From Candidatus Gottesmanbacteria bacterium (lineage in GTDB: Bacteria; Patescibacteriota; Microgenomatia; UBA10105; UBA927), in contig JAHFKK010000001.1 of the NCBI GenBank assembly GCA_023245335.1, positions 795,505-859,504 on the forward strand: a stretch of DNA of 64,000 nt, read 5' to 3'. Numbering within the stretch: the first letter of the stretch is position 1; the number at the start of each line of letters is the position of its first letter. Below the pieces are notes generated by a model. The model searched no databases. It saw nothing but the letters and a program-made list of their open reading frames with translations, and was not told the origin of the DNA. Shown piece after piece: positions 2,643 through 64,000 of this stretch. The position numbers and the translations under genes were made by a program.

Positions 2643-2668
2643 GCCCGGCATTTGCCGGACTTTTTTTT
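2643..2668 (+). terminator. rho-independent terminator after tRNA-Glu
   Basis: GC hairpin gcccggca/tgccggac followed by an 8-T run. Confidence 0.65.
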
Positions 2669-8884: not shown

Positions 8885-8893
8885 CCCATTCTT

Positions 8894-9277
8894 ATGGATA
8901 TAATGCTCGCGCCTGATGTCAAAAAGATCATGAAAGCGATTTTAAAAACATCGCTATTTGTCCAGGTCGATCCCAAACGTATCGTTTGCATGCGGAGTAC
9001 CGGAGCCACAAGCCGTGCGAGGGCACGTATCTGGAGTTTTCCCAAAATCTGGCAGATGGCATTAGGTGTGCCGGCTCATTATGTCATTGAAGTGCTTTCT
9101 CAGCATTTTGACCACCTGTCGGATGATGATAAAACGCGGGTCATCATCCACGAACTTATGCATATCCCGAAAAACTTTTCCGGGGCACTTGTTCCCCACC
9201 GGGGGAGGCATGCACACATAGACAGCCGAACGGTAGAACAGTTATTTCGCCGGTATAAAGACTCGCTCACTACATAA
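8894..9277 (+). CDS. putative zinc metallopeptidase (HExxH, SprT/Wss1-like)
   Basis: IIHELMHIP HExxH motif in a 127-aa protein. Confidence 0.45.
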   Translation: MDIMLAPDVKKIMKAILKTSLFVQVDPKRIVCMRSTGATSRARARIWSFPKIWQMALGVPAHYVIEVLSQHFDHLSDDDKTRVIIHELMHIPKNFSGALVPHRGRHAHIDSRTVEQLFRRYKDSLTT

Positions 9278-18381: not shown

Positions 18382-19500
18382 ATGAAAGTGACTATTTCTG
18401 TTATCAAAGCAGACACGGGGTCGGTAGGCGGGCACAATCGCCCGAGCGACGCCATGGTTGCCAAGGCCAAAGAGCGCGTCTCGGAAGCAATTTCGTCGGG
18501 ACTTCTCCTGGACGCCCGGGTATCGTATACCGGTGATGATATTGCGCTTCTCATGACGCACGCGAGAGGCACGGATAATTCGGATATACATAAGTTTGCC
18601 TGGGACACATTCGTCGAGACGACCAAAATAGCCAAAAGTCAGGGACTCTATGGTGCAGGCCAGGATCTTCTAAAGGACGCATTTTCCGGAAACGTACGTG
18701 GTATGGGTCCCGGATCCGCAGAAATGGAAATAGAAGAGCGGCCGGCAGAACCGTTTATTTTGTTCGCCGGAGACAAATGCGGACCTGGGGTCTTTAATTA
18801 TCCGCTTTTTTCGTGTTTTGCCGACCCGTATCATAACGCCGGACTGTTGCTCGCGCCGGAAATGAGAGATGGATTCACCTACCGCATCATGGATGTGAAT
18901 CATACGGAAGCTGATAAAGTCATTACGCTCAAGGTTCCGGTCGACTATTACGATATCGCGTGTCTGCTTCGTGATCCGAACAGGTACATCGTCGAGAGCG
19001 TCACGGAAAATGCCACGGGGCTTATAGCGGCTGTCGCATCGACGAGCCGCCTCCACAATATCGCCGGCAAATATGTCGGGAAAGACGACCCGGTAGCGTT
19101 GGTACGCACACAGAAGCAATTCCCGTCGACCGGAGAAATTCTTTCTCCCTGGGCGCTTGCACACTATGTCCTCGGGGATAATAGGGGATCACATCACGTT
19201 GCGGTGATGCCGGTCAAACAGAATACGATCATCTCCTACTTTGACGGACCGACGGTCATGTCAGCCGCAGGATATTGTGTTCATGAAGGGAAGCTCACGG
19301 AAGCCGTGGATTACTTTGACCAGCCGTTCTGGGACGTGATCCGGGAAAAGGCGGCCAATAAAACCATGGAGATGCGTGCACAGGGGTTCTTTAACCCGGC
19401 CATGGGTCCGCAGGATGAAATGGAATATACAGGCGTCATGGAAAACCTGAAGCGTCTCGATGCAAGATTCGTGAAAGAAGCAGGCAAAAAGGCAGTCTAA
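18382..19500 (+). CDS. fbp: bifunctional fructose-1,6-bisphosphate aldolase/phosphatase (class V FBPase)
   Basis: MKVTISVIKADTGSVGGH N-terminus, characteristic of the archaeal-type FBP aldolase/phosphatase family; about 370 aa. Confidence 0.75.
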   Translation: MKVTISVIKADTGSVGGHNRPSDAMVAKAKERVSEAISSGLLLDARVSYTGDDIALLMTHARGTDNSDIHKFAWDTFVETTKIAKSQGLYGAGQDLLKDAFSGNVRGMGPGSAEMEIEERPAEPFILFAGDKCGPGVFNYPLFSCFADPYHNAGLLLAPEMRDGFTYRIMDVNHTEADKVITLKVPVDYYDIACLLRDPNRYIVESVTENATGLIAAVASTSRLHNIAGKYVGKDDPVALVRTQKQFPSTGEILSPWALAHYVLGDNRGSHHVAVMPVKQNTIISYFDGPTVMSAAGYCVHEGKLTEAVDYFDQPFWDVIREKAANKTMEMRAQGFFNPAMGPQDEMEYTGVMENLKRLDARFVKEAGKKAV

Positions 19501-21604: not shown

Positions 21605-21689
21605 ATGTCTATCATACGGCACGCGCCTTTTGTTGGCTATTCGTCTTTTCCCGAGATACGGGAGGGTCGGAAAGAGGCTGCACGCCATC

Positions 21690-27041: not shown

Positions 27042-29972
27042 ATGGAAAATATAGTAATTAAAGGCGCCAGACAGCATAATCTCAAGGATATCTCGCTTAC
27101 CATACCCAAAAACAAACTCGTGGTATTTAGCGGGCTGTCCGGGTCCGGCAAGTCATCGCTTGCCTTTGACACCATTTATGCCGAAGGCCAAAGGCGCTAT
27201 GTCGAATCCCTCTCCTCGTATGCGCGGCAATTTTTGGGCGTCATGGACAAACCGGACGTAGATACGATAGAGGGCCTGTCACCATCTATTTCCATAGATC
27301 AGAAGTCCGCTTCTCATAATCCCAGGTCTACGGTAGGTACGGTCACCGAAATATATGACTACCTGCGGTTACTATTCGCGAGGGCCGGCCATCCTCATTG
27401 TCCGAACTGCGGCAGAGAAATTTCACGGATGTCCTCGGACCAGATTGTGAACGCGATCCTTGCCATGGGCGCCGAACGGCTTACTGACAGACGCGCCAAA
27501 CAATTCCGTATGGCCGTTCTTTCCCCGGTTGTACGCGACCATAAAGGCGAATTCACCAGTCTATTTGATAATCTCAAAGCCAAGGGCTACCGCCAGATCC
27601 GCGTAGATGGAGTATTTATGGATCTCGATGAGGATCGGACACTCATAAAGACCAACAAACACACGATCGACGTCATCATAGACCGCATCAGCATGGATAA
27701 ACCAAGCCTCAAGCCGGAATTTGTCGGCAGCATACGGTCGAGATTATCCGACGCGGTCAGTCAGTCACTCGCGCTATCCGACGGACTTGTTGTCGTAGGC
27801 GAGATTACCGATCGGGGCTTTGACCTACCGGACAAGCCCAAAAGCATGAATGACCATATATTTTCAGAAAAATTCAGTTGTCCCGTATGCAACATCGCCT
27901 TACCGGAAATCGAACCAAGATCATTTTCCTTCAATTCACCGCACGGAGCTTGCCCGGCGTGTCTCGGGTTAGGTACCATCCTGACCGTAGACCCTGATCT
28001 GGTGTTGAGTCCCGAACTTTCCGTATCCGAAGGCGGCGTATTGCCGTTTGCCAAGACGTTTTTGCATGATACCTGGTATGCACGCGTCGTGTCGACCGTT
28101 GCTGCCAAACATGGGATTAACTTGCGCGCGCCGCTTAAGAATCTCACATCCAAGCAACGCCAGATTCTCCTCTATGGCACAGGGGACGACATCCATCATG
28201 TCAAGGGAACCAACCGTTTCGGTGAAATGACCGCTATAGAAGAAACATTTCGGGGATTCGTACCGGAACTTATGAAGCGTCATGCCGAAACCGATTCGGA
28301 TTTTCTGCGTCTTGAGATCGAAAAGTATATGCGTCAGGAGGTATGCAAGTCCTGTAACGGACGCCGCCTCAAAAACGAAAGTTTACAGATTACGATCGAT
28401 AAATTTTCGATCGCAGACGTTACGGATCTCAGCATAACCGACTCCCTCGCGTGGGTAAAAACTCTCGTCAAACGCGAGGAGCCTGTTTTGACCGAAACCG
28501 AACGCCAAATAGCGACTCCTATCGTGAAAGAAGTCATGGCTCGTCTCGGATTTTTGGTAAGTGTGGGACTCGAGTACCTGACACTCTCTCGAAGTGCGAC
28601 CACGCTTGCGGGAGGGGAGGCCCAGCGCATACGCCTCGCGTCGCAAATTGGATCAGGGCTCACGGGGGTGCTCTATGTTCTGGATGAGCCATCCATCGGA
28701 CTGCATCCGCGAGACAACCACCGTCTCATCGCGACGCTCAAGGCGCTTCGTGATTTGGGTAATTCTGTCATTGTCGTCGAGCACGACCGGGAAATGATTG
28801 AATCAGCGGATTGGATCGTCGATTTCGGCCCGGGAGCCGGCAAATACGGGGGCACGGTTATTTCCGAGGGGACCGTTGCACATGTACGTAATGACCCAAA
28901 GTCCGTTACCGGCCAGTATTTATCCGATAAGAAACGAATTAAGATAACCAAATCGCCGCTTTTGGATTTGACACCCCGCTCAATTACCATAACGGACGTC
29001 ACCCATAATAACCTCAAGGGCATCACCGTTTCTGTCCCGGTAGGGAAATTTGTTTGTTTTACGGGAGTGTCCGGCAGCGGCAAATCGTCACTCATCGTCG
29101 AAACGCTTTTCCCGGCGCTGCAACGGCAATTCAATCCTTTTATGAAAGAACGGCCCGGAGCGTTTACGGGGCTTAAAGGCACAGAAGCGATAGACAAAGT
29201 CATTCTCATTGACCAGTCGCCCATAGGCCGTACGCCCAGAAGTAATCCCGCGACCTATACGGGACTGTTTTCGTACATCCGCGAAATATATGCAGCCCTT
29301 TCGGAATCCAAAATCCGCGGATACAAAAGCGGAAGATTTTCTTTTAACGTTAAGGGCGGCAGATGTGAGGCATGTGAGGGCGAAGGACAGCGCAAAATAG
29401 AGATGCAGTTTCTTGCGGACGTCTATGTCACCTGTGAAGTCTGCGGCGGCAAGCGTTATAACGCCGATACGCTTGAAGTGACATATCGCGGCAAATCCAT
29501 AGCAGAGGTCTTGAATATGAGCATCGATGAAAGCCTGGACTTCTTCCATGCGCACCCGCACGTACTTCTAAAATTGCAGACACTCTTTGACGTAGGTTTA
29601 GGATATATGCAGCTTGGACAGGCGGCGACAACCTTATCAGGCGGCGAAGCGCAGAGGGTCAAGCTAGCGACAGAACTATCCCGCAGATCAACGGGAAAAA
29701 CCGTCTATATACTCGATGAACCGACGACCGGTCTCCACTTTGCCGATTTAGAAAAGTTGCTTGCCGTCCTCCATCGGTTGGTCGGAAGCGGCAACACGGT
29801 TATCGTCATAGAGCACAATCTGGATGTCATACGATCTGCTGATTGGGTCGTTGATCTCGGGCCCGAGGGGGGAGATAATGGCGGACGCATTGTCTGCGCG
29901 GGTACGCCTCACGACGTCATGAAAGAGAAACATTCTTATACCGGACAGTTTTTGAAAAAAGCGCTAGAATAA
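27042..29972 (+). CDS. uvrA: excinuclease ABC subunit A
   Basis: IVIKGARQHNLKDISL, two ABC ATPase modules (GLSGSGKSS / GVSGSGKSS), zinc-finger Cys clusters (CPNCG, CEACEGEG...CEVCGG). Confidence 0.9.
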   Translation: MENIVIKGARQHNLKDISLTIPKNKLVVFSGLSGSGKSSLAFDTIYAEGQRRYVESLSSYARQFLGVMDKPDVDTIEGLSPSISIDQKSASHNPRSTVGTVTEIYDYLRLLFARAGHPHCPNCGREISRMSSDQIVNAILAMGAERLTDRRAKQFRMAVLSPVVRDHKGEFTSLFDNLKAKGYRQIRVDGVFMDLDEDRTLIKTNKHTIDVIIDRISMDKPSLKPEFVGSIRSRLSDAVSQSLALSDGLVVVGEITDRGFDLPDKPKSMNDHIFSEKFSCPVCNIALPEIEPRSFSFNSPHGACPACLGLGTILTVDPDLVLSPELSVSEGGVLPFAKTFLHDTWYARVVSTVAAKHGINLRAPLKNLTSKQRQILLYGTGDDIHHVKGTNRFGEMTAIEETFRGFVPELMKRHAETDSDFLRLEIEKYMRQEVCKSCNGRRLKNESLQITIDKFSIADVTDLSITDSLAWVKTLVKREEPVLTETERQIATPIVKEVMARLGFLVSVGLEYLTLSRSATTLAGGEAQRIRLASQIGSGLTGVLYVLDEPSIGLHPRDNHRLIATLKALRDLGNSVIVVEHDREMIESADWIVDFGPGAGKYGGTVISEGTVAHVRNDPKSVTGQYLSDKKRIKITKSPLLDLTPRSITITDVTHNNLKGITVSVPVGKFVCFTGVSGSGKSSLIVETLFPALQRQFNPFMKERPGAFTGLKGTEAIDKVILIDQSPIGRTPRSNPATYTGLFSYIREIYAALSESKIRGYKSGRFSFNVKGGRCEACEGEGQRKIEMQFLADVYVTCEVCGGKRYNADTLEVTYRGKSIAEVLNMSIDESLDFFHAHPHVLLKLQTLFDVGLGYMQLGQAATTLSGGEAQRVKLATELSRRSTGKTVYILDEPTTGLHFADLEKLLAVLHRLVGSGNTVIVIEHNLDVIRSADWVVDLGPEGGDNGGRIVCAGTPHDVMKEKHSYTGQFLKKALE

Positions 29973-29994
29973 GAGAATCAATACGCAAAACCCC

Positions 29995-31821
29995 ATGAAG
30001 AAACGTGCGTTTAACGTGTATCAGATCCTTATCTTCCTTTTTGGATTTGTTTTGCTGAGTCTTTGCCCCAAACCCGTCTATGCGACCGGCGAATTCCAAG
30101 CGGATTACGACGTGCAGTACGCCATAGCCCCCAGCGGCAAAACCATTGCGACCCAGCACGTCACACTGACCAATAAACTATCCAATTACTATCCCAAGCA
30201 ATATTCACTCCTTCTGGACAGCGACAAAATTTCAAATGTCATCGCCTATGATGACGGGGGCGTCATAAGCCCCGCCATCTCGGTCAAAGATGGCAAGACT
30301 GACATTACGCTTGCGTTTAATGTCAAGACGATCGGCTTAGGCAAGTCGTTTACGTTTTCCCTACGGTACGAACATAGCGGTATCGCCGCACAAAACGGCA
30401 ATATCTGGGAGATCTACGTGCCCGGCATCACGAATGACCCGGATATAGGGGAGTACAATGTGACGCTTGCCGTACCGCCAACGTTTGGACCCGCGGCGTA
30501 TTTATCACCGAGGCCCGCAAGCGGCAATACGTGGAATAAGGACCAAATGATAAGGGGGGGAATTGCCGGCGCATACGGGTCTTCACAGAATTTCGTCGCA
30601 AATCTAACGTACTCCATATCAAACGATGCGCTCGTTCCGAAGATCGGCGAACTTGCCCTACCGCCCGATACGGCATATCAAAAAGTGACCGTACAAAACC
30701 TTGATCCCAAACCGCAAACCGTGGTTCGCGATTCAGACGGCAACTGGCTTGCCAGGTACGAGCTTGGCCCCAGGGAATCCATGGCGGTTCATGCCAAGGT
30801 TCATATAGCTACCTTTATCGCAGCGCGGTCCGATTATCTGGCTCCGCAGGTTACGACGCCATCGTATGTGACGCCGCAAAAATACTGGCAGGTAAATGAC
30901 CCCCAAATACAGACGCTCGCGAAGCGCTATACCACGCCTCGACAAATATATGATTATGTTGCCTCCGCCTTGAAGTACGATTATTCGAGGGTAAATTCCG
31001 GCACGGTACGCCTCGGAGCAGTAGGGGCACTAGGCGCACCATCTCAGGCCGTCTGTATGGAGTTCACTGACCTATTCATTGCAATAGCAAGGGCGGCCGG
31101 CATACCGGCACGTCGCGACGTGGGATATGCCTATACCAACAACCCCAAGCTTCGTCCGCTTTCGCTCGTAACTGACGTCCTGCATGCGTGGCCCGAATAT
31201 TACGACAGCGACCAAAAGCTATGGATCCCTATAGATCCCACGTGGGCAAATACGACCGGTGGCGCCGATTACTTTACCAAACTCGATTTCAATCATATCG
31301 TTTTTGCTATAAACGGCGCCGACAGCACCCTGCCGTATCCCGCAGGGTTTTATCATGCGACCAGCACGCCAACCAAAGATGTCGACGTGACGTTTGCCCC
31401 GTCCGTATCGCTCACCAGCCACCCCGACATCGTTTCTCACATAGAATTCCCGTCCCAAATAGGTGCCGGCACGAACCCGACCGGTGCCATAGTCATAAGC
31501 AACAACGGAGATACTTCGGCATACACGATCTCGGTAAGCGCACAATCCAATGTCGGGAATGTTGGGCTGACCCAGGTGATACCTGAGCTTTTGCCATACG
31601 CGACGGTGCGCCTGCCATTCACGGCGACCATACCCCAAACCTTTGCATCCGTAAACGGCACGATCAAGGCACAGGTCAATGATGCTACCTTTAAGCAGAA
31701 TTTCACGGTCCGCCCGATCGTATGGCTTATTGCGGCTATAGCAATTTTTGCCGTTACAAGCGTCGTTATCGCCGTCAAATTAGTGCAGCTTCTCCTATGG
31801 AAGATCTTCAAAAAACATTAA
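29995..31821 (+). CDS. secreted/membrane-anchored transglutaminase-like protein
   Basis: N-terminal signal peptide, C-terminal TM helix, papain-like Cys-His-Asp core (CMEFTDLFIAIARAAGIPARRDVGY ... HAWPEYY ... WIPIDPT). Confidence 0.6.
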   Translation: MKKRAFNVYQILIFLFGFVLLSLCPKPVYATGEFQADYDVQYAIAPSGKTIATQHVTLTNKLSNYYPKQYSLLLDSDKISNVIAYDDGGVISPAISVKDGKTDITLAFNVKTIGLGKSFTFSLRYEHSGIAAQNGNIWEIYVPGITNDPDIGEYNVTLAVPPTFGPAAYLSPRPASGNTWNKDQMIRGGIAGAYGSSQNFVANLTYSISNDALVPKIGELALPPDTAYQKVTVQNLDPKPQTVVRDSDGNWLARYELGPRESMAVHAKVHIATFIAARSDYLAPQVTTPSYVTPQKYWQVNDPQIQTLAKRYTTPRQIYDYVASALKYDYSRVNSGTVRLGAVGALGAPSQAVCMEFTDLFIAIARAAGIPARRDVGYAYTNNPKLRPLSLVTDVLHAWPEYYDSDQKLWIPIDPTWANTTGGADYFTKLDFNHIVFAINGADSTLPYPAGFYHATSTPTKDVDVTFAPSVSLTSHPDIVSHIEFPSQIGAGTNPTGAIVISNNGDTSAYTISVSAQSNVGNVGLTQVIPELLPYATVRLPFTATIPQTFASVNGTIKAQVNDATFKQNFTVRPIVWLIAAIAIFAVTSVVIAVKLVQLLLWKIFKKH

Positions 31822-39164: not shown

Positions 39165-39446
39165 TTATAGAATACGTGAACCCAGATTTCTCCCCAGGAT
39201 TATCCAATAACTTCGCAGATTAGTATTGATAAATTCACGCGTTCCCTCAGATTCTTGTATAAACTGGAGTATACTCGGCGTGGCAGTAGTTAGGGCTTCT
39301 TGTGGATTTTTAGAACTTTTAAACTCTTGTAAAAGGGGATTATCGCGCCTACCTTCTGGCATGTAATTTGTATATCTTCCTGGACGAAATATGCCTACGA
39401 GAGCAAACCGCCCTTTAATAATCTGAATTCTCTTCTCATATTCCAC
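39165..39446 (-). CDS. hypothetical protein (possible frameshifted tail of the upstream gene)
   Basis: 93-aa ORF overlapping the 3' end of the transglutaminase-like gene in another frame. Confidence 0.2.
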   Translation of the reverse strand: MEYEKRIQIIKGRFALVGIFRPGRYTNYMPEGRRDNPLLQEFKSSKNPQEALTTATPSILQFIQESEGTREFINTNLRSYWIILGRNLGSRIL

Positions 39447-40297
39447 ACGTGAAGCAGCTGATCAAAGTTGTCATCCGGTTTTATCATTAATTCCGCGAGT
39501 CTATCTATTTCAGTCAGTTGTTCTTCGCCGTTTTTATCAAAATTCTTCAACAGTACCATCTCGGGATGGTGATAGTAAGGGATTTCGCTATTCATTAAAC
39601 AATGGAAATCGTAAAACAATTCCCAAGCGACTACCGTAAGACCGGAATACCCTCCACCATTTAAAAAATGGTCCGCATCGATTTTTCCTTTTCTCACATT
39701 TAGCCAGGATTCAGCCGAAAATTCAAATTCGCCTCCGGGAATATCATACAAATCAAACGGGATGTCATCTTCTAAACTGCCATCTACGTCAATTGACACC
39801 CACCGTAACTCCGTCTTATGCCAATATTGAGTAATCCAGTGGTCGTCGCTTTTGCCTTTGTGTGGGCCATTCGGGTTAAAGTACGGAGCGAAACCGGATC
39901 GCACTCTTGCAGGAATTCCTTTCGTTTTCAACAAACTAGCCATAAGAATAGAGGTAAAACGGCACGTTAATACGAGTTTATTTTCTGAGAGCCGATCCGC
40001 AACCAAGCCCCGTCTATCTCTGCGATATAATTCTACGAGCATAGCCGCCGCAGTGACAAAAACGTCGTCTTCTTTTTGCCGATACCACGGGATTTTTGTC
40101 ACATCCCCGTAGCGCAGATCCGTGTTTGAGCCGATATTACCGTTTTCTAACGTCCTCCCGTGTATGAAAGATTTTCTTACCAAAAATCCGATATCTTTTA
40201 CACGATCGGGGAGTGTTAATTTTAGAGAATCTCTATATAAACCGGGGTATGTATATTGGCTAAATTGGAGATAGAACGTAAGGATTTTTCTATCCAT
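39395..40297 (-). CDS. cytoplasmic transglutaminase-like cysteine protease family protein
   Basis: CRFTSILMASLLKTKGIPARVRSGF ... DDHWITQYW ... WVSIDVD, a Cys/His/Asp transglutaminase-core arrangement. Confidence 0.55.
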   Translation of the reverse strand: MDRKILTFYLQFSQYTYPGLYRDSLKLTLPDRVKDIGFLVRKSFIHGRTLENGNIGSNTDLRYGDVTKIPWYRQKEDDVFVTAAAMLVELYRRDRRGLVADRLSENKLVLTCRFTSILMASLLKTKGIPARVRSGFAPYFNPNGPHKGKSDDHWITQYWHKTELRWVSIDVDGSLEDDIPFDLYDIPGGEFEFSAESWLNVRKGKIDADHFLNGGGYSGLTVVAWELFYDFHCLMNSEIPYYHHPEMVLLKNFDKNGEEQLTEIDRLAELMIKPDDNFDQLLHVWNMRREFRLLKGGLLS

Positions 40298-54255: not shown

Positions 54256-54670
54256 CGCACCACCCACACCTGTCGCACCCGTACCGTCGATCCAAGAAAC
54301 TCCCTTGCCGGCGTCGCTCACGCCCGAAGTTACTCCCACACCGGCCGCACCCGCTCCTATGCCGCCGCAACCGAAAAAGCCGTTACCCAAAAATTTCGTC
54401 ATCGTGGGAGCGGTCGTATTCGTCATCCTCATCGTCGTACTCGTCTACCTGCAAGCGCTTCAAAATAAGCCGGTTGCGCAATTACCGGCTCCCACTCCTG
54501 CGCCACTAGCCACACCCACACCCATGCGCATACTGACCCCCATTGCTACCACCAGCGCATTTATGTCATTTCATGAGTCGGTAGCATCTCTTTCTGCGAC
54601 CATCAACGGATTCTCATTCGTGGACGGCACGCTCACACCACCCGTATTGGATTTGGATCTTGGATTATAG
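54248..54670 (+). CDS. proline-rich single-pass membrane protein
   Basis: Pro/Thr-rich N-terminus, one TM helix (FVIVGAVVFVILIVVLVYL), Pro-rich linker; overlaps the upstream gene by 8 nt. Confidence 0.35.
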   Translation: MNDAPPTPVAPVPSIQETPLPASLTPEVTPTPAAPAPMPPQPKKPLPKNFVIVGAVVFVILIVVLVYLQALQNKPVAQLPAPTPAPLATPTPMRILTPIATTSAFMSFHESVASLSATINGFSFVDGTLTPPVLDLDLGL

Positions 54671-54722
54671 CGGTAATTTCGCCTTTGCAGGAACGCCCGG
54701 GGGTATGATACACTCCTCTCGT

Positions 54723-55571
54723 ATGAAAAGCGCAATTGAACGCACCTCCGACGGCACTATTACCCTTACCGTCACTATCCCTTGGACCGATATCAAATCC
54801 CTCTACCAGGTCGTCGTGGACGAAAACGTCGCGAATGCGGAAATTTCAGGATTTCGGAAAGGCAAGGCACCCAAAAAGATGGTAGAGGAGAATCTCGATA
54901 AAACCAAAGTATATGAAGAAACGATCAGACGGCTGGTACCAAAAGCCTATAGCGACGCTGTCAGCGAACACAAATTGACGCCGATCATGATGCCGCAGAT
55001 CGATCTAAAATCCGCAGAAGAAGGCAAAGATTGGATCATCCTGGCAAAGACCTGCGAGAAACCCAAAGTGACGCTCGGCGACTACAAAAAGGCGGTCGGT
55101 GATCTCAAATTCTCCAAAACCAAAAAAATCTTTATACCGGGAAAAGAAGAAGCGCCCAATGATGACAAGAAAGGTCCGAGTGTCGACGAAGTACTCGCAG
55201 CCCTTCTCACAGCCGTAAAAGTTGCCATCCCGGCCATCCTTATCGACCACGAAGTGACGCACCAACTATCACAGCTTGTCGATCAGACCAAAAAACTGGG
55301 CCTATCTGTCGAGCAGTATCTGGCATCCACCAATAGGACGGCCGATTCGGTTCGGACCGAGTACGCAGGAATTGCGGAAAAAAATCTCAGCCTGGAATTC
55401 GCACTCGAAGCTATTGCTGATCATGACCACATCGAGGTGAGTAATGATGAAATTGCAAAAATTCTAGAAAGCGCCAAAACTCCCGAAGAGCGCCAAAACC
55501 TCGAAAGTCAGCGCTACTACCTGACGTCTTTAGTTCGACGGCAAAAGACCATGGATGCTCTTATGGCCTAA
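54723..55571 (+). CDS. tig: trigger factor (short form)
   Basis: N-terminal ribosome-binding domain with the GFRKGKAPKKMVEE signature (GFRxGxxP) after MKSAIERTSDGTITLTVTI. About 280 aa, so lacks much of the canonical C-terminal arm. Confidence 0.65.
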   Translation: MKSAIERTSDGTITLTVTIPWTDIKSLYQVVVDENVANAEISGFRKGKAPKKMVEENLDKTKVYEETIRRLVPKAYSDAVSEHKLTPIMMPQIDLKSAEEGKDWIILAKTCEKPKVTLGDYKKAVGDLKFSKTKKIFIPGKEEAPNDDKKGPSVDEVLAALLTAVKVAIPAILIDHEVTHQLSQLVDQTKKLGLSVEQYLASTNRTADSVRTEYAGIAEKNLSLEFALEAIADHDHIEVSNDEIAKILESAKTPEERQNLESQRYYLTSLVRRQKTMDALMA

Positions 55572-55598: not shown

Positions 55599-56222
55599 GT
55601 GCCCTGTAGTATAATGCGGCCAAGTATGCAAGCGGCACAAAAGAAACCAATAGGCTCCTACAAAAACGACAATGTGCTTGAGACGTTGGGGTCCATCCCT
55701 TCCTCCATAGGCACAAATACCGCAGCTGAAGTAGGGAAAATAGGCACGGATATCGTTTCGGCGCTTTTGGGTGGAATCCCGAAATCCGGCGACCTGGAGC
55801 CAAATCAGGTCATCGAATTCGGCCAGCAAAAAGCCGAACAACAGCCGCAACCCATAAGTATGCCCCGACTGGAAGTCCAGCCCAGGCCAAATATGACCGA
55901 AATAGAGGCGCAAACCCGCCAGCAAATTGAGGCTATCCGACAGGAACTCAAAGCCCTTTCTAAATCAATTAAGGGCCTGAACCAGGAAGTGCAGGCAGCC
56001 GTTAGCCAGGAACCGGTCGATCCGGGCATATATCACATGAATTTCTATGAACAACTGCGCTCCTTCATCGCGGTACTTCGCCAACAGATCGAAGACAGCC
56101 GGAGCTGGCTCGCAACCTTTAATTCACGGAAACAGAAAAAAGGATATTGGGGCATGTATAAAAAACACGGGACCAACTTCGGACTCTCCAGCGAACGGTC
56201 TCTTGCGACCTCTGCTGGCTAA
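55599..56222 (+). CDS. hypothetical protein
   Basis: 207-aa Q-rich ORF with a predicted helical middle; no recognisable motif. The start could be one of several early Mets. Confidence 0.3.
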   Translation: MPCSIMRPSMQAAQKKPIGSYKNDNVLETLGSIPSSIGTNTAAEVGKIGTDIVSALLGGIPKSGDLEPNQVIEFGQQKAEQQPQPISMPRLEVQPRPNMTEIEAQTRQQIEAIRQELKALSKSIKGLNQEVQAAVSQEPVDPGIYHMNFYEQLRSFIAVLRQQIEDSRSWLATFNSRKQKKGYWGMYKKHGTNFGLSSERSLATSAG

Positions 56223-56421: not shown

Positions 56422-56865
56422 ATGGCAGCTAAACTATTTGTCGGGAGTCTTTCGTGGGATACCACGGATGACAGCCTGCGTAACTTTTTTAGTGCTGCGG
56501 GTACCGTCGTTTCGGCGACCGTACTTACAGACAAATTCACGGGGAAATCCCGGGGATTTGGTTTTGTGGAAATGTCCTCTGATGAGGAAGCTCAAAAAGC
56601 AATTGCCGAGCTAAACGGTAAAACGCTGGATGGTAGAGCAATCGTCGTCAACGAGGCCAGGCCCATGGCGCCCCGTGATAACCACGGCGGCGGGGGTGGG
56701 GGACGGTCCTTTGGTGGTGGCGGTGGAGGCGGCTACCGCGGTGGTGGTGGCGGGGGTGGATTTAACCGCGGTGGCGGAGGTGGAGGCGGACACCGTGGCG
56801 GTGGACATCGCGGAGGCCGGGATTTCGGCGGCGGCGGTGACGACCGTGGCGGCAGGGATTGGTAA
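56422..56865 (+). CDS. glycine-rich RNA-binding protein (RRM domain plus RGG/Gly-rich tail)
   Basis: RNP-2 KLFVGSL and RNP-1 RGFGFVEM motifs; C-terminal GGGGG/RGG repeats; AGGGAGG RBS. Confidence 0.85.
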   Translation: MAAKLFVGSLSWDTTDDSLRNFFSAAGTVVSATVLTDKFTGKSRGFGFVEMSSDEEAQKAIAELNGKTLDGRAIVVNEARPMAPRDNHGGGGGGRSFGGGGGGGYRGGGGGGGFNRGGGGGGGHRGGGHRGGRDFGGGGDDRGGRDW

Positions 56866-56885
56866 ATCGTTATATAAACATTGCA

Positions 56886-56920
56886 AAAAGCCACCCGCGA
56901 GGGTGGCTTTTTGGTTTTGT
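56886..56920 (+). terminator. rho-independent terminator
   Basis: aaaaAGCCACCCgcgaGGGTGGCTttttggtttt: 8-bp GC stem, tetraloop, T run. Confidence 0.75.
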
Positions 56921-56993: not shown

Positions 56994-59900
56994 ATGAAAA
57001 CCCTGAAACGGGCGCATAAAGTTGTATCAATCCTCTCGAGCATCGTCATGCTCGTACAGCCGCTTATTCCGGCTTTCCAAACGTTCACTCCGAAGGTATT
57101 TGCAGAGGCCACGACTGACCAATCCACGCCATCTCAGGAACAGACAACCGAAACCAACACGGTCATTTCTCCTCCATCAGACTCCCCTCAATCTTCACCG
57201 ACAAACACTACATCAACTACAGCCGAATCACCAACTGTAGCACCCATACCAACCGCTACAACGAGTCCGAATTCGACTCCCGACGGAGTCACACAGACTC
57301 CTACAGCCACAGTTCAACCCTCCGAAACCGGGCCTCCGTCAGATGTAAATGGAGACATCGGACCCGACGGCGCCTCTACGACGACTACCGCTAACCAAAT
57401 CGATTTGACCGAATCAACAACCTCAGCCTCTTCCGCCAAACAAGTAATCCCAGTTGAACAAGTATGCGTAACAAACGACCAGCAATTCTCCGACACCACA
57501 AATGATAGTTGGAATATTGACCTCGAAAAAGGAGCCGCGGAAACCAAGGGCAGCGTACAACTCGGCGTGAAGTACCAGTTCCCGCAGGAAAACAAGGTAA
57601 CCGTCACCTTTAACTGTCTGCCGAAGGACGAAAGTCTTCGGACTTCACTTAAAATCCAAAAAGTAAAGTTGAGTGATCTGAAGGTTCCTGATGACGTTAA
57701 ACCCTCTGGTGAGTTTGCTTATGACATAACTACTGGCATGAAGGACGGAGATTTCAAATACGACGTCACACTACCCAAGCCAGATAATCAGGCTGTCGAG
57801 GTGGCATACATGGAGGACCCAAACGCATCGGTACAAACGGTTTCAAGTGACAGAACAAGCCAAGAAGGAGATAAGGTTAAAGGTGCCGACTTGAATCACT
57901 TTACCATATTTTTCGTCAGCACCACCATGTCGGTATATGCCAGCTTTACCGGCGCTAGCCAAGTGACTGTGTACCCTTCCGCTCCGATAACTGCTAATCT
58001 TCAGGTAACCACTTCTTCTGTGGGAAACAATACTGCTGACGATTGGAGCTCCTCTCAATACCTTATCGAGGGTGGATCATGGTCAACCTGTGATAGCTCC
58101 CCTAGTTTTACAACCGATGGAACATATTCTGGCACTTTGAATATAACGGCTCCATCTATAACTGGTACGTACGACCTAAGCCTTAGAGTCTTTAACAGTA
58201 ATAACTGTACCGGTGGAGCGGGCACATTCGCAGAAACGACACTTCCCGACGCCATCACAGTCACGGCAAACACCTCTATACCGTTTACTGAGGAGTTCGG
58301 TTTATCCAACGCATCAACAGTAGCGAATTGGTACGAAAATGACCCGGCAGAAATTTTTAGCGGTACCGGAAATGACGCGCCCACAAACGGTGAGTTTGCC
58401 CGACTTGGCGAGGGTGGATGGATTTGCCGTCCGTTTAATGCGACAGGAATCGCCAACCTAACCCTAAGCTACGACTGGAAGGGAAACGGGAATAATGGAA
58501 ATGACCATGGCATAGTAGAATATAAATCCGGGGGAAACTGTGGAGATTCAAACGGATGGACCAATGTAGATACAAACGAATTATCGGATACCACCTGGGG
58601 CACACAAACTCATACATTTGCGGGTAACAGCATCGTCCTCCTCCGGTTTAAAACAAGCGGAGCTGAAACGGGAGAGTACTTCCGGGTAGACAACATTACA
58701 CTGACGGAATTTACCCAACCAGATCTTACCGTCCAAAAATCCCATACGCCGACCGGTAATGCAATGAAAACCCAGGCGTTTACCTGGAAAATCCATGTAG
58801 CAAACGGTGGTACGGGGGCTGCAGCTTTTACCACAGGCCAAAATGTTTTAATTGATAATTTGCCTTCCAGCGGCGCGACCTATGGAGCGCCATCAGTTTC
58901 TAACCAAACCGGCATAACAGGAACGATCGGCTGTGCCATTGCGTCAAACAACCTCACCTGTAGCGCTTCCGGCGCAGTCAGTATCGCAGCGGGGGGGTCA
59001 TTTGATGTCACTTGGAGCACTACACCTACCGCAACCGGCTCTCTCATAAATCCTCGGAGTGGTTCTGGGAATAAATGCGCGGTAGATCCGGATTCTCACA
59101 TCACGGAGTCCGACGAAAACCACAATAGCTGTTCTGAAACTGTCACGGTCGACGCCTATAATGCTCAGAATCCGGCACTCGGCCAGGCCTGCGGACTCGA
59201 CGTAAGCTTAGTTATAGATAATTCAAACAGTATTAGCGGCACTGAATTGGGACAGATACAAACGGCGCTCACTCATTTTGTCAACACATTAGCAGGGACG
59301 CCTACACAATTTTCGGTTACTAAATTTGGTACGAACGCATCGGTCCCCCAAGGTTTCACCAGCGACACCACTGCCGTAAATAACGCCATCAACGGAGTTA
59401 CGACTGGAGGAGGGGGTACTGATTGGCAGAAGGCATTTATAGCCGCACGGGGAACTTTTGACCCGAGACCAGACAAGCCCAACCTCATGATTTTTGCGAC
59501 CGACGGTAACCCTACCTTTCCAAACTGCGGAGGGGCATCCTCCTGCCAAGCTGACGTTGACGCGGCTGTAACAGAGGCAAACACCACAAAAGAGTATCCG
59601 ATCAGGGTATTAGCTTTAGGCGTAGGTGCCGACGTAAATGTCGCGAATCTAAAAGCAATATCCGGACCAACCCAAGGATCCAGCATGACTTCGGATGTTG
59701 TACTTGTATCCGATTTCGCATCTCTTGACAGTCAGTTCGCAGCGTTTGCCAGCGAATCCTGCGGCGGTCACATCAGTTTCAACAAATACGTAGACGGCGT
59801 ACAAAAGAGTGATGGTAAAACATGGACATTCAATGTTGACGGGACGACAACCCTGACAACCGACACAAACGGACAGGCCGTGACGGGCACGTTGAGTGTC

Positions 59901-62900
59901 GCGAACCACAGCGTGACGGAGCCACAAACCAGTATTCCAAGCGGCTACTCATACGATCACGCTTCCTGTACGAAAGACGGCAGCCCGATAGGAACGGTCG
60001 ATAATACGAATCATGCCGTAAACAATATACCGATAACATCGTCAGGAGTTTTCGTCTGTAATTTTTACAATACCAAAAATCCGGTCAAAGGAACGCTCAC
60101 AGTCAAAAAGGTGGTCGTGAATGACAACCTCGGAATCGAAAATGCGAACGACTTCACGTTCTCCGTGAATGGCGGCGCGCCTATCACGTTTACCCAAAGC
60201 ACCGACAGCTTGCATGCCGAAAATGTTTTGAGTCTTGATGCCGGTACGTACACCGCTACGGAGGCGGCCTTCCCCGGTTATGCCACCACCTATGACAACT
60301 GTTCCGGTATTGTCCTCGCGGCCGGGGGTAGTGCGACGTGCACCATAACCAATAACGACATCTCTCCTGCGCCCGGAACAATTATTGTGAAAAAAGTGCT
60401 GGTCGGGCCAACGTCATGGGCGACCGGCTTCGACTTCAGCGGCGCAATCACAGGGAAAATTACCACTAATAACGGAACGCTATCTTCAACAAGCGTCGCC
60501 GTCGGTGCCCACACGGTGACGGAAGGCTCGACGGATGGCTGGGATCTTACTGGTATCGCATGCGACGATGGAGCGAGTACCCAACCGAGTTCGGGTAATG
60601 TGAGTACAAAAACGGCAACGTTTAACGTCGATCCGGGAGAAACGGTGACCTGCACATACACCAATGCGAAACGGCCGAAGATCAAAATCACCAAAACCGT
60701 GGTAGGAGGGACTGCTGCGCCGTCGGATTTCCAAATATCGCTCCTCAATCCCTCGGGGCAGAACGTACAATCCAGCCCGATCTTCGGCTCGACTGCCGGA
60801 ACATCATTTGAATTAGGCCTTCCACAATATACTTTCCCCGGAGTATTTACCGTTCGGGAGGCTTCGACGTCCGGCTACACCACGACGTTTAGCGGCGCCT
60901 GCACACAAACGAACGCGACCGATGCAACGGTGACCCTGAACTATGGAGACAACGGCACATGCACAGTCACGAATACGAGACAGGCCGGCACTATCAAAAT
61001 TATAAAAGACGTGGTTCCGGACGATGACCATCAAAGCGTATGGAATTTCGCGATTACCGGTCCCACGAACAACAATGTCGACGGATTACACGATGATGGC
61101 CAATCGAGCGCAATAGTATCAAACGCAGGAGATTATACGATTCGAGAAATAGCTCAGGCAGGTTCAGACCTGGACAATTATCGTGTCTCATACGCCTGTA
61201 CCGGATCCTCAACGCCCATAAGCGGCAACGGCAGCTCAGCGGGCTTTACGCTTTCGGCCAACCAAAACATCGTCTGCACGTTTACGAATGCAAAACTGCC
61301 CACCCTCAAACTCACAAAGACGGTGGAGAATAAAGGAGTGGGCACGGCGACACCCGCGAATTGGACGCTGGGGGCGTATGCAATCGGTGATCCCATATCG
61401 TTTACCGGAATTGGCCCGACCGTAGGTCCCTATCGGGTAAATCCCGGAGTTGAATACATTGTTTCCGAGGCCCCGGGAGGACCGTCCGGATACAGTCCAT
61501 CCGCTTGGACATGCTCGGGTGGAACCACCAGGATATCAGGCGGAAATATTCTCGTCACACTCGCGATGGGTCAAGACGTTACCTGCGGCATCACCAACAC
61601 CCGCGATACCGGTTCAATCCTCGTTCATAAAGTGGTGGATGCCAATGGCGACAGCACGTTTGAGACAGCCGACGCCGTCGCCAATACCCTGGGATTCCAA
61701 TGGGGACTTGATGGCGTGACTCCCGCCCGCGATATGGGCTCGACAGCCAGCGGGGTCACAACCGGTACCCATAATGTATCGGAAAATTCGGTAACGAATT
61801 ATCATCTGGTCGGCTGGTACAGAAACGGTGGGGAAGGCAGTTGTTCCAATCCGGACAGCCGCCAACTTCCGGCATCCGTTGATGCCTTCAAGGACACCAC
61901 AACCACGATAACGCTTTGCAACGCCGTGAACACGGGAAGCATTATCGTCCACAAAGATGTCCAAGGCCCCGACGGTGAAGACATCACGGACACAGCACAC
62001 ACATTTACAATGCAGGTTGACGACTCCAATAGTCAGGATCTCACGGATGGGGGCAGCGTCACGTATACCAACCTGCCGGCCGGCAATCACACGATCACAG
62101 AATCAGTTGTTGACTCACACTATGATCTTTATGGCATAAGCACATCCGTAGGCGGATCTGGAAATACGGGCGGGCTTTCGGTGAATGTCGCTACCAACCA
62201 ACAAACAAACGTCTACGTCACCAACAGACAGCACTATGGTTCGATCACCGTCCATAAAGAAGTCGATGCCTCGGGAAGCGGCACATTTGTCTCAGCAGAT
62301 CCGGGAGATTTCACTTGGACCGTAGACGGCGCGGGAACCAACGCCATGGGCTCCACCCTCACAACCGTGACACCCGGAACCCGGCTTATCTCAGAAAATA
62401 ATGTAGACAATTATCATTTCGTCGGATGGTATCCGACCGGAGACGAGAGACTGAGCTGCACAAACATACCGGAAGCGACGCAGTATGCCGAGCTGCCGAT
62501 TCATGTGAGTGTAGGTCCGGACGGCACCTCTGACTTCACGATCTGTAACACGAGGGACACAGGAAACGTAACGGTCACCAAATTTGATGATACAAACGGC
62601 AACGGCACCAAGGATGAAGGCGAACCGGTATTGAGCGACTGGACCATCAACTTGTCAGGATCGGACTCACAAACGACGGACGAAAACGGACAGGTGCTGT
62701 TTAACCCAGTCCTCACGGGTACGCACATATTGAGCGAAGACCTCAAACAAGGCTGGAAGCAAACAGGTATCTATTGCACAAACGAACAAACCATTGAAAC
62801 GGGTCCAATAGAAAATACCCTAACCCAGTTCATTTCTTCAAAAGTATATGCACAAGAGGACGCGGGACACCAGGTACACGTAGGGGCAGGTGAAAACGTC

Positions 62901-63563
62901 AGTTGTTTCATCGGCAATCTTCAACAGGACCCGATCCTGACGATTACCAAAAGTAACAACGCCACAGGGGATCTGTCACCGGGCGGCACTGTGACGTTTA
63001 CGATCACCGTGACCGCAACGCAAAGTGCGGCCTACAACGTGCAGGTCATAGACCTTCCGTCCAAAGGATTCAACTATCACGTCGGTTCACAAACTGCAGT
63101 ATCGACTGTCGCAGGGCATGATTTGAGCGGCGCATTGACGCATGCGTACGCGTCACCCGGTATTTGGAACCTTGGAACTATGAGCGCCGGCGAGACCGTC
63201 ACGCTCACATACCAAACCGATATAGACTCCGGGCTAAACCCCGGTCTCTATAAAGATTTGGCCCTGGCCTACGGGTGCAAATCAGATGCGTCGTGTGCTA
63301 CCGGAGATTCTATGAGCGTCTTTGCGACAGCCATAAATCCAGGATTTGTAAGCACCAATCATGTCGGCACTCAGATAAGTATCGTAAAAGACCAGCAAAA
63401 CGGTGCAACGTTGAACCCGACGACCGGTGAGGTATTGGGAGCTTCCACAGAACTGCCGGCAACGGGTGCAAGTGAGATTTGGCTGGCCATTGCAGGTTTG
63501 TTGTTCGTAGCCGGTCTCGGATTCATGGCTGCAGGGCATTTCACACGGAGGAACTATGTTTAA
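56994..63563 (+). CDS. giant LPXTG-anchored surface adhesin with VWA domain and multiple Cna-B/SdrD-B-like repeats
   Basis: Signal peptide; Thr/Pro/Ser-rich linker; VWA domain with MIDAS DVSLVIDNSNSIS...FATDGNPT (about nt 59190-59760); at least 9 tandem prealbumin-like modules (G[ST]I.V.K.V..........F.F), including a DxNGNGxxDxGE SdrD-B/Cna-B calcium motif (DTNGNGTKDEGE). C-terminal sorting signal LPATG, hydrophobic helix, then RRNYV. Confidence 0.8.
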   Translation: MKTLKRAHKVVSILSSIVMLVQPLIPAFQTFTPKVFAEATTDQSTPSQEQTTETNTVISPPSDSPQSSPTNTTSTTAESPTVAPIPTATTSPNSTPDGVTQTPTATVQPSETGPPSDVNGDIGPDGASTTTTANQIDLTESTTSASSAKQVIPVEQVCVTNDQQFSDTTNDSWNIDLEKGAAETKGSVQLGVKYQFPQENKVTVTFNCLPKDESLRTSLKIQKVKLSDLKVPDDVKPSGEFAYDITTGMKDGDFKYDVTLPKPDNQAVEVAYMEDPNASVQTVSSDRTSQEGDKVKGADLNHFTIFFVSTTMSVYASFTGASQVTVYPSAPITANLQVTTSSVGNNTADDWSSSQYLIEGGSWSTCDSSPSFTTDGTYSGTLNITAPSITGTYDLSLRVFNSNNCTGGAGTFAETTLPDAITVTANTSIPFTEEFGLSNASTVANWYENDPAEIFSGTGNDAPTNGEFARLGEGGWICRPFNATGIANLTLSYDWKGNGNNGNDHGIVEYKSGGNCGDSNGWTNVDTNELSDTTWGTQTHTFAGNSIVLLRFKTSGAETGEYFRVDNITLTEFTQPDLTVQKSHTPTGNAMKTQAFTWKIHVANGGTGAAAFTTGQNVLIDNLPSSGATYGAPSVSNQTGITGTIGCAIASNNLTCSASGAVSIAAGGSFDVTWSTTPTATGSLINPRSGSGNKCAVDPDSHITESDENHNSCSETVTVDAYNAQNPALGQACGLDVSLVIDNSNSISGTELGQIQTALTHFVNTLAGTPTQFSVTKFGTNASVPQGFTSDTTAVNNAINGVTTGGGGTDWQKAFIAARGTFDPRPDKPNLMIFATDGNPTFPNCGGASSCQADVDAAVTEANTTKEYPIRVLALGVGADVNVANLKAISGPTQGSSMTSDVVLVSDFASLDSQFAAFASESCGGHISFNKYVDGVQKSDGKTWTFNVDGTTTLTTDTNGQAVTGTLSVANHSVTEPQTSIPSGYSYDHASCTKDGSPIGTVDNTNHAVNNIPITSSGVFVCNFYNTKNPVKGTLTVKKVVVNDNLGIENANDFTFSVNGGAPITFTQSTDSLHAENVLSLDAGTYTATEAAFPGYATTYDNCSGIVLAAGGSATCTITNNDISPAPGTIIVKKVLVGPTSWATGFDFSGAITGKITTNNGTLSSTSVAVGAHTVTEGSTDGWDLTGIACDDGASTQPSSGNVSTKTATFNVDPGETVTCTYTNAKRPKIKITKTVVGGTAAPSDFQISLLNPSGQNVQSSPIFGSTAGTSFELGLPQYTFPGVFTVREASTSGYTTTFSGACTQTNATDATVTLNYGDNGTCTVTNTRQAGTIKIIKDVVPDDDHQSVWNFAITGPTNNNVDGLHDDGQSSAIVSNAGDYTIREIAQAGSDLDNYRVSYACTGSSTPISGNGSSAGFTLSANQNIVCTFTNAKLPTLKLTKTVENKGVGTATPANWTLGAYAIGDPISFTGIGPTVGPYRVNPGVEYIVSEAPGGPSGYSPSAWTCSGGTTRISGGNILVTLAMGQDVTCGITNTRDTGSILVHKVVDANGDSTFETADAVANTLGFQWGLDGVTPARDMGSTASGVTTGTHNVSENSVTNYHLVGWYRNGGEGSCSNPDSRQLPASVDAFKDTTTTITLCNAVNTGSIIVHKDVQGPDGEDITDTAHTFTMQVDDSNSQDLTDGGSVTYTNLPAGNHTITESVVDSHYDLYGISTSVGGSGNTGGLSVNVATNQQTNVYVTNRQHYGSITVHKEVDASGSGTFVSADPGDFTWTVDGAGTNAMGSTLTTVTPGTRLISENNVDNYHFVGWYPTGDERLSCTNIPEATQYAELPIHVSVGPDGTSDFTICNTRDTGNVTVTKFDDTNGNGTKDEGEPVLSDWTINLSGSDSQTTDENGQVLFNPVLTGTHILSEDLKQGWKQTGIYCTNEQTIETGPIENTLTQFISSKVYAQEDAGHQVHVGAGENVSCFIGNLQQDPILTITKSNNATGDLSPGGTVTFTITVTATQSAAYNVQVIDLPSKGFNYHVGSQTAVSTVAGHDLSGALTHAYASPGIWNLGTMSAGETVTLTYQTDIDSGLNPGLYKDLALAYGCKSDASCATGDSMSVFATAINPGFVSTNHVGTQISIVKDQQNGATLNPTTGEVLGASTELPATGASEIWLAIAGLLFVAGLGFMAAGHFTRRNYV

Positions 63564-64000
63564 CAAAATAAGGAAATTGACGATCATAACGCTCGGTGCA
63601 TTGCTCGCAGGTAGCATGCTCGCCGCGCACGTGTATGCTGCGAATCTCAGCGTACGTGTCGAACAACCCAAAAGCCCAACCAACCAGACGAGTTTTGATA
63701 TCAACTTTGTAGTCCTGGACATTCTTGGACGTACTGTCACCGTCAAATGCTTCAAACAAGGGCCGTCTGACGGAAGTTATGTCCAGTTTGGAAGTGATCA
63801 GTCCTTCGCAAACGGCGGCAATAGCGGCAGCTGCAACACAGGAAGCGGTGTCTTTAGCCCGGAGGGCAACTATAGCTTTCGGATCGATGCATCAGCGGGC
63901 GGAGACGGTGCATCCGATACGACCAGCGTCACGTATGATAACAGCGGCCCAGGAGATGTGCGCGATTACAATAAAAATCACTCTGGGAGCTGCCAATATA
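63556..64000 (+). CDS. secreted protein (partial, continues beyond the window); possible partner or pilin of the adhesin
   Basis: ATG overlaps the adhesin stop (atgtttaa). Signal peptide MFNKIRKLTIITLGALLAGSMLAAHVYA; reading frame stays open to the window end. Confidence 0.5.
   Translation, partial: MFNKIRKLTIITLGALLAGSMLAAHVYAANLSVRVEQPKSPTNQTSFDINFVVLDILGRTVTVKCFKQGPSDGSYVQFGSDQSFANGGNSGSCNTGSGVFSPEGNYSFRIDASAGGDGASDTTSVTYDNSGPGDVRDYNKNHSGSCQY

Follow-up and report, generated by a model that had tools for sequence, protein, structure and literature searches.

The stretch of DNA analysed here, 64,000 nucleotides (nt) from a Candidatus Gottesmanbacteria bacterium (GenBank assembly GCA_023245335.1, contig JAHFKK010000001.1, positions 795,505 to 859,504; hereafter the window), ends with the gene of a giant surface protein carrying a C-terminal LPXTG sorting signal and with the 5' part of the gene of a second exported protein, here called the partner; a sortase gene follows just outside. 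It is likely that this region covers the first gene, and about half of the second, of a three-gene operon encoding the giant adhesin, a membrane-anchored partner with two FN3-type domains (FN3x2) and a dedicated sortase. This operon is probably a core cassette conserved in Microgenomates and WWE3, ultra-small bacteria of the candidate phyla radiation (CPR).

The adhesin gene consists of one open reading frame (ORF) for 2189 amino acids (aa). An initial annotation, made from the sequence without database searches, had described exactly this ORF, with its VWA domain and metal-ion-dependent adhesion site (MIDAS), LPATG, hydrophobic segment and basic tail, and the Pfam and NCBIfam matches now agree with it. 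The identical protein was found on three assemblies, namely a 340-kb ENA contig (L001), a Logan contig and the 1.218-Mb NCBI contig. Its N-terminus, read by eye from the sequence, shows a basic n-region, a hydrophobic core and a predicted VFA/EA cleavage site, and this N-terminal region is common to about 14 related giants. The layout of the protein and of the features around it is reported in Table 1.

Table 1. Features at the 3' end of the window, with positions in the 64,000-nt stretch.
Feature	Position	Strand	Basis and remarks
Intrinsic terminator, 5' boundary of the cassette, closing the upstream RRM gene	56884..56913	+	13-bp stem, 7 G-C pairs, T-run; L001 9891-9920
Giant LPXTG surface adhesin gene	56994..63563	+	2189-aa ORF; Pfam and NCBIfam matches
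Putative signal peptide, residues 1-37, predicted cleavage after VFA	56994..57104	+	read from sequence
Ser/Thr/Pro-rich low-complexity linker, residues 38-160	57105..57473	+	sequence; no Pfam match
Head domains without family assignment, residues 161-574	57474..58715	+	Pfam scan empty
CARDB/DUF11-like beta-sandwich, residues 575-714	58716..59135	+	CARDB 35.3 bits, segment scanned alone
VWA domain with complete MIDAS, residues 736-913	59199..59732	+	PF00092 55.5 bits vs cut-off 23.8
Stalk, ten CnaB/SpaA-type modules, residues 924-1978	59763..62927	+	motif boundaries; Lys-Glu-Asn triad in each
DUF11-like base domain, residues 1979-2135	62928..63398	+	DUF11 32.6 bits; in every orthologous giant
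Extended sorting signal VLGASTE-LPATG-AS, transmembrane segment and TRRNYV, residues 2147-2189	63432..63560	+	LPATG at 63453-63467
Shine-Dalgarno-like GGAGGA, 3 nt before the partner ATG	63547..63552	+	sequence
Partner gene, 5' part (148 of 324 codons)	63556..64000	+	ATG at 63556; runs past the window end

The MIDAS of the VWA domain is complete (D742-x-S744-x-S746, T809 and D837). For the head segment 161-574, no family was obtained in the Pfam scan at E<=0.1, and the same segment is present in 0-10 of the 69 orthologous giants. Head residues 300-920, VWA included, are shared by only 2-5 of these 69 proteins and the CnaB stalk by about half of them, while the part from residue ~1850 to the end recurs in nearly all and residues 2001-2150 in 67-69. 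The adhesin is a variable head on a conserved base.

In the stalk we counted ten modules, in addition to the DUF11-like base domain, in agreement with the at least nine prealbumin/Cna-B-like modules originally recognised. Pfam assigned the stalk to SpaA_2 (108.6 bits), SpaA_4 (55.6), SpaA (33.7) and SpaA_3 (30.9), all over their cut-offs. When the ten modules were aligned, only three columns were invariant: a Lys in the first strand, a Glu within an h-x-h-x-E motif and a terminal Asn. A hidden Markov model of the ten modules was used to collect about 400 modules from 57 related giant proteins, in which the triad columns hold K in 348/348, E in 424/425 and N in 325/325. The initial claim that the modules lack the Lys/Asn/Glu context of isopeptide bonds was therefore wrong. 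Among solved structures, the module profile matched CnaB domains belonging to pilins and collagen adhesins, with its K and E aligned to the K and E of 8bdw_A, and it reached RrgA weakly (2ww8, E=0.012). A Cys pair occurs in nine of the ten modules and is kept in roughly 70-87% of the ~400 homologous ones. Judged from these residues, the stalk looks doubly locked by putative isopeptide and disulfide bonds. Module 10 contains, at residue 1866, DTNGNGTKDEGE with the motif DxNxNGxxDxxE; scanned alone, it scored 27.0 bits with SdrD_B (PF17210), slightly below the cut-off of 29.7.

The LPATG pentapeptide (residues 2154-2158) is followed by a hydrophobic stretch of ~24 residues and by TRRNYV. On residues 2152-2178 the Gram_pos_anchor model (PF00746) gave 20.0 bits, with a cut-off of 20, and 22.2 bits when the segment was scanned alone; the NCBIfam LPXTG_anchor model TIGR01167 gave 19.9 bits against a cut-off of 15.9. 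The adhesin thus has the attributes of an LPXTG sortase substrate, that is the pentapeptide, the hydrophobic segment, the basic tail, scores reaching the curated cut-offs and a sortase on the same contig. Among 70 giants, 68 carry the family motif [VIL]LG-x(2-7)-[LM]PxTG, 43 of them as LPATG. In the adhesins a G-x-VLG motif (63432-63440 in the window) stands 4-5 residues ahead of LPXTG, with VLG-x4 as the usual spacing, and VLG is common to this segment and to the linker of the partner described below. One LPXTG-type tail was counted in the window plus 10 kb.

The start of the partner gene overlaps the adhesin stop by 8 nt (ATGTTTAA), with GGAGGA before the ATG, and the gene encodes a signal-peptide protein; the initial view of translational coupling to a second exported protein was supported. 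On L001 the full partner could be read and is 324 aa long. No family was matched in Pfam or NCBIfam. An exhaustive profile search assigned 972 representative proteins to the partner family. An AlphaFold2 model, built with 118 homologs (predicted local distance difference test, pLDDT, 80.5), shows a signal-peptide helix, two beta-sandwiches (residues 31-127 and 136-213, pLDDT >90), a disordered segment (229-290) and a C-terminal transmembrane (TM) helix (294-319). The fold search returned generic FN3/Ig/PKD matches only, which offered no clue to function, and no CnaA/CnaB; on this ground we rejected a partner built of CnaA/CnaB pilin domains.

The conserved features of the partner are four Cys (two disulfides), Ala28, the FN3-type RAFD..GNGS and the VLG motifs of the linker. 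Ala28, the predicted signal-peptidase site, is invariant in 69/69 sequences, including those where partner and adhesin are fused. The mature N-terminus would mostly begin with Ala or Gly, followed by the conserved LSVRxEQPKSPTNQ, in which Pro38 is found in 68/69 sequences. The disordered linker has VLG once or twice (residues 251-255, L001 17313-17327); in a sample of 28 sequences L254 and G255 show no variation, and across 118 sequences their conservation is at least 90%. LPXTG was looked for in the partner and none was found; a C-terminal TM with a basic tail is present instead. The Pfam anchor model matches the TM and tail part alone, which suggests that the tail derives from a sorting signal whose LPXTG was lost. 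In 70 partner sequences no invariant lysine was found, K39 being present in 52/70 (Glu in WWE3) and K140 in 60/70. The similarity of the partner VxVEQPK to the pilin motif VxVYPK was accordingly rejected as a general mechanism, considering the frequency of K39, its replacement by Glu in WWE3 and the lack of any other invariant lysine.

The initial annotation had noted that no sortase lies in the window, and had named the absence of any sortase in the genome as a reason to abandon its reading; that reason falls away. None was found in the 64 kb, and one stands just outside: a gene of 223 aa, two genes 3' of the adhesin and ~0.5 kb beyond the window end, overlapping the partner by 41 nt. The product matched PF04203 (70.6 bits) and TIGR01076 (44.4 bits, cut-off 39.35), and its catalytic residues His129, Cys198 (TLMTCWP, of the TLxTC type) and Arg207 are invariant in 73 sortase homologs. 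The AlphaFold2 model (pLDDT 87.7) has the sortase fold, with Foldseek E-values of about 1e-10 to sortases of class A, C, D and E.

A class C sortase had been predicted downstream; the sortase is there, two genes away, but its class is a different matter. Typical of class C sortases are a lid (DP[FWY]) on the N-terminal side, covering the active site, and a second TM helix at the C-terminus. The modelled enzyme has a single N-terminal TM helix (24-59), and only ~15 residues separate it from strand 1 (residue 76), therefore leaving no room for a lid; it ends 9 residues past the last strand, without a C-terminal TM, and lacks a DP[FWY] motif. Class C was the best match among the NCBIfam classes and among the sequences of solved structures, but the class C NCBIfam model scored 53.6 bits against a cut-off of 160, and the models for classes D, E, F and the GN sortase were also far under their cut-offs. 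On the basis of the score, the missing lid and the missing C-terminal TM, the class C assignment was rejected. Since the Foldseek scores of class A, C, D and E structures are nearly equal and all NCBIfam class models stay far below their cut-offs, no class label is supported.

The conservation of the cassette was examined in 73 species-representative loci, 67 of which had at least 700 nt of flank and were scored for the sortase. The sortase lies directly 3' of the partner in 67/67. In 38/73 loci, adhesin and partner form one uninterrupted ORF, and independent gene calls agree with the fused ORFs. Similarly, in 94 of the best 150 of the 972 representatives, the partner module occupies the extreme C-terminus of a longer protein (447-3052 aa). 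In a fused protein, ...VLGASTELPATGA is followed by a TM, a Lys/Arg loop, a second TM resembling a signal peptide, AxA, LSVRxEQPKSPTNQ, two FN3, the linker, a TM and a basic tail, so the LPXTG signal is internal. In the split loci the two genes overlap by 4-16 nt. Either by gene overlap or as a single polypeptide, adhesin and partner are thus produced 1:1. The two arrangements are collinear, with an LPXTG-to-RAFD distance of 232-264 residues in the fused forms and of 245 here. A neighbour-joining tree with Fitch parsimony placed the fused state at the root, with at least 8 fusion or fission events; given the fused majority and the fused root, the split form observed here is a minority state and, by that reconstruction, derived.

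The named relatives carrying the cassette are Gottesmanbacteria, Shapirobacteria, Levybacteria, Roizmanbacteria, Pacebacteria, Chisholmbacteria and WWE3; they belong to Microgenomates and WWE3, and not to the Saccharibacteria-like organisms initially considered. Many related metagenome-assembled genomes are titled "uncultured Gammaproteobacteria", and we took them as mislabelled because their loci are CPR-like. Beyond the terminator upstream of the adhesin, a second terminator-like hairpin lies 3' of the sortase; with hairpins on both sides, the three genes are therefore regarded as one unit. Upstream are the genes of trigger factor (54660-55571, +) and of a DUF5660 protein (55599-56222, +), and the same gene order is seen in 12-13 loci from the clade closest to the window. 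The cassette site is a stable chromosomal locus.

Some observations were made on the genes around the cassette. The gene directly upstream of the adhesin (56422-56865, +) encodes an RNA-binding protein of the RRM_1 family whose tail is long and Gly/Arg-rich. Right after the cassette, L001 18461-26570 encodes an HTH_17 protein, a 1545-aa multi-glycosyltransferase and further GT2, GT4 and DegT proteins, and in the related locus L004 a cluster of sugar-nucleotide, glycosyltransferase and PMT_2 genes stands in the same place; these post-cassette glycosyltransferases might glycosylate the Ser/Thr/Pro-rich linkers. L004 also encodes (129-2663) an 844-aa CARDB/CLIPPER protein that ends in NILGANTSIPPKD, a TM and Arg, a VLG-type tail without LPXTG, similar to that of the partner. 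In L026 a second, more distant sortase homolog (2659-3276, E = 4e-17) is found upstream of a fused adhesin gene. In L006 (~8600-9000) the ORF before the partner, which ends ...QVLGASTDGYAATG..., is just 266 aa long and shows no clear LPXTG; this locus may be a degraded or variant cassette.

We propose the following mechanism from four observations: the arrangement of the domains, the conservation of the triads, the obligate linkage of the three parts of the cassette and the fused/split polymorphism. Adhesin and partner would be exported by Sec. The sortase, through His129, Cys198 and Arg207, would then cut between Thr and Gly of LPATG, terminal or internal. The recognition peptides predicted for it are VLGASTELPATG; in GEVLGASTELPATGASE the cut is predicted after Thr, with VLG as part of an extended motif. 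The adhesin would be passed to an amine acceptor, most likely a peptidoglycan precursor; two genes agree with the presence of peptidoglycan, one in the window that is D-Ala-D-Ala ligase-like and one, in a related locus, for a bifunctional penicillin-binding protein. Signal peptidase would cleave the partner after Ala28, so that in the fused forms this cut and the one between Thr and Gly of LPXTG would together excise the TM1-loop-TM2 hairpin. The partner would be kept in the membrane by its C-terminal helix, with a disordered stalk of ~70 residues holding the FN3 pair near the wall surface, and our best guess is that it serves the adhesin as companion or assembly factor, beside the conserved base domain. 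By analogy with proteins of similar domain composition, attachment to a host cell or to another surface is the probable function of the adhesin.

Several points weigh against this reading. The signal peptide of the adhesin was assigned by eye, and cleavage at the internal LPXTG, the nature of the acceptor and isopeptide bond formation are predictions made from the sequences. No conserved catalytic or binding motif explains the partner, whose invariant residues (the four Cys and RAFD..GNGS) look structural. Moreover, other sortases or substrates may exist elsewhere in the 1.2-Mb genome. Finally, adhesion is deduced from domain grammar, and a near-universal cassette in a fixed position could equally mean a general envelope fibril.

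This last possibility can be formulated as a core fibril or surface coat needed by every Microgenomates or WWE3 cell, in which the heads vary under phage or predator pressure rather than by choice of ligand. It would agree with the occurrence of the cassette in 73 species-representative genomes, from many Microgenomates lineages and WWE3, and with its conserved position beside trigger factor and DUF5660. However, ligand-binding fibrillar adhesins are usually built in this way, with a MIDAS-containing VWA domain and other exchangeable heads carried by a conserved stalk, and we consider such a fibril quite unlikely; it concerns, in any case, the biological role alone, and the same sortase mechanism fits. 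We regard as very unlikely the sortase-assembled pilus suggested by the initial annotation, where the giant would be the tip adhesin, the partner a pilin or basal subunit and a class C sortase the polymerising enzyme. A VWA, CnaB and LPXTG protein does adjoin a second exported protein and a sortase whose best NCBIfam class and solved-structure sequence matches are class C. Yet the partner is TM-anchored, with no LPXTG, a generic FN3/Ig fold in place of CnaA/CnaB and no conserved lysine; the cassette has a single LPXTG protein; the sortase falls short of class C in score, lid and C-terminal TM, and Foldseek leaves A, C, D and E unseparated; furthermore, one polypeptide in most relatives misfits many shaft subunits per tip.

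The two remaining alternatives concern the fate of the adhesin at the membrane. The sortase could join it to the partner rather than to the wall, using the Ala29 amine exposed by signal peptidase or a partner lysine, with ANLSVRVEQPKSPTNQ as the candidate acceptor peptide; the adhesin would then be membrane-tethered through the partner helix, and in the fused forms hairpin excision would be followed by re-ligation. Several features speak for this: the obligate 1:1 ratio of adhesin and partner with repeated fusion and fission, the invariant signal-peptidase site, fused forms included, the mature N-terminus described above with its Ala/Gly start, LSVRxEQPKSPTNQ and Pro38, the loose likeness of V-x-V-E-Q-P-K to VxVYPK, and a tail similar to a sorting signal minus LPXTG, so suited to staying in the membrane. 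On the other hand, neither K39 nor K140 is family-wide; signal peptides in general are most often followed by Ala, so that Ala at +1 does not discriminate; peptidoglycan genes are present, so the usual acceptor is on hand; and no precedent was found in the literature searched. We consider anchoring to the partner rather unlikely, and about as doubtful, if not slightly more, is the full scheme of a sortase-driven polyprotein maturation, in which the hairpin is excised and the C-terminal Thr of the adhesin is re-ligated to the N-terminus or to a side chain of the partner, with the FN3x2 stalk as membrane tether. Alternatively, the internal LPXTG of the fused forms could stay uncut, with LPXTG-TM1-loop-TM2 as a membrane hairpin linking two ectodomains and the sortase acting on other proteins. 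It is true that in sortase substrates the signal normally stands at the very C-terminus and that cleavage here is a prediction; however, LPxTG is kept in 68/70 giants, fused or split, the sortase is adjacent in 67/67 loci, the split forms, such as the protein in the window, have a textbook terminal signal, and the collinear fused and split states were interconverted at least 8 times. An uncut hairpin is thus extremely improbable, and the sorting of the adhesin to a wall acceptor by its own sortase is the reading we retain.

Considering known systems, the protein resembles, by analogy of its parts, a Gram-positive sortase-anchored fibrillar adhesin and the cassette a dedicated sortase-target pair; by the features tested, it is not a pilus locus. 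The view put forward initially, of a CPR genome encoding a fibrillar VWA/CnaB surface protein with a sortase-type LPXTG, was supported. Like adhesins of the MSCRAMM type (microbial surface components recognizing adhesive matrix molecules), such as Cna and SdrD, it has a putative signal peptide, a candidate ligand-binding head, a stalk of CnaB-type repeats, one of them SdrD_B-like, with the Lys-Glu-Asn triad and a C-terminal LPXTG, TM and basic tail. It differs from them in its CPR host, the Cys pair of the modules, the extended VLG-x4-LPxTG signal, the genetic lock that ties it to a sortase of its own and an FN3x2 membrane protein, and the internal position of the signal in most relatives. The pilus islands SpaCBA and RrgABC similarly combine a VWA and CnaB LPXTG gene with a second exported protein and a sortase, and the core of our sortase is nearest to class C in sequence; unlike them, the cassette has no second LPXTG protein, no CnaA/CnaB partner fold, no conserved pilin-motif lysine, no sortase lid or C-terminal TM, and a VWA head in few orthologs. 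The likeness to RrgA/SpaC proposed at first is a loose analogy of domain grammar: phmmer with the full adhesin gave 0 matches against all PDB chains at E<=0.01, and the VWA head is confined to 2-5 of the 69 giants.

In marine proteobacteria, a dedicated sortase (TIGR03784) is paired with a single adjacent VWA-containing target (TIGR03788). The cassette shares with this pair the use of one sortase gene per cognate substrate gene and a VWA in the substrate. It is otherwise distant, with 11.6 vs 551.65 for TIGR03788 and 18.8 vs 158.25 for TIGR03784, another phylum and envelope type, and a third obligate component, the FN3x2 partner, often fused to the adhesin.

Among CPR bacteria, the sortase family fam000526 is reported to be near-ubiquitous in Microgenomates (Meheust et al. 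2019, PMC6744442), and it is the enzyme family and the lineage of the cassette sortase. Kantor et al. 2013 (PMC3812714) predicted sorted proteins in WWE3 and TM7, with LPXTG proteins in WWE3. In the passages of PMC6744442 and PMC3812714 that were read, and in the other literature searched, we found no description of the partner family, of the fixed cassette or of an internal LPXTG; the literature searched on CPR sortases, on internal LPXTG and on isopeptide bonds in CPR offered general statements only.

Additional features were observed in the remainder of the window. Over the first ~30 kb the GC skew has positive values and it turns negative thereafter, with a cumulative peak of about 0.59 near 28-30 kb, and the change of sign near 28000-30000 may mark a replication terminus or origin. 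Metabolic genes include FBPase_3 (18382-19500, +), an archaeal-type enzyme already mentioned in the initial annotation, an ADP-forming acetyl-CoA synthetase-like protein (19514-21688, -) and a phosphoenolpyruvate synthase/pyruvate phosphate dikinase-like enzyme (13162-15429, +). Two transglutaminase-core proteins are encoded at 29995-31821 (+; 608 aa, with a signal-peptide-like N-terminus) and at 39395-40297 (-), and sixteen tRNA genes, several in small clusters, are distributed between 2558 and 56369.

These results bear on the envelope biology of the group in several ways. The near-ubiquitous sortase previously noted in Microgenomates is now tied to a specific cognate substrate, and the partner family is an unannotated, lineage-wide envelope protein. 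An LPXTG in the middle of a polypeptide, before a conserved ectodomain, is unusual in sortase biology, and would imply that the enzyme works as a polyprotein-processing protease besides being a transpeptidase; if re-ligation to the partner were true, it would be a protein-splicing-like use of a sortase not described so far. How CPR bacteria attach to hosts and surfaces is largely unexplained, and the discussion has so far been centred on type IV pili. The cassette, with its swappable heads on a stalk apparently locked by isopeptide and disulfide bonds, offers a second concrete candidate for attachment in Microgenomates and WWE3.

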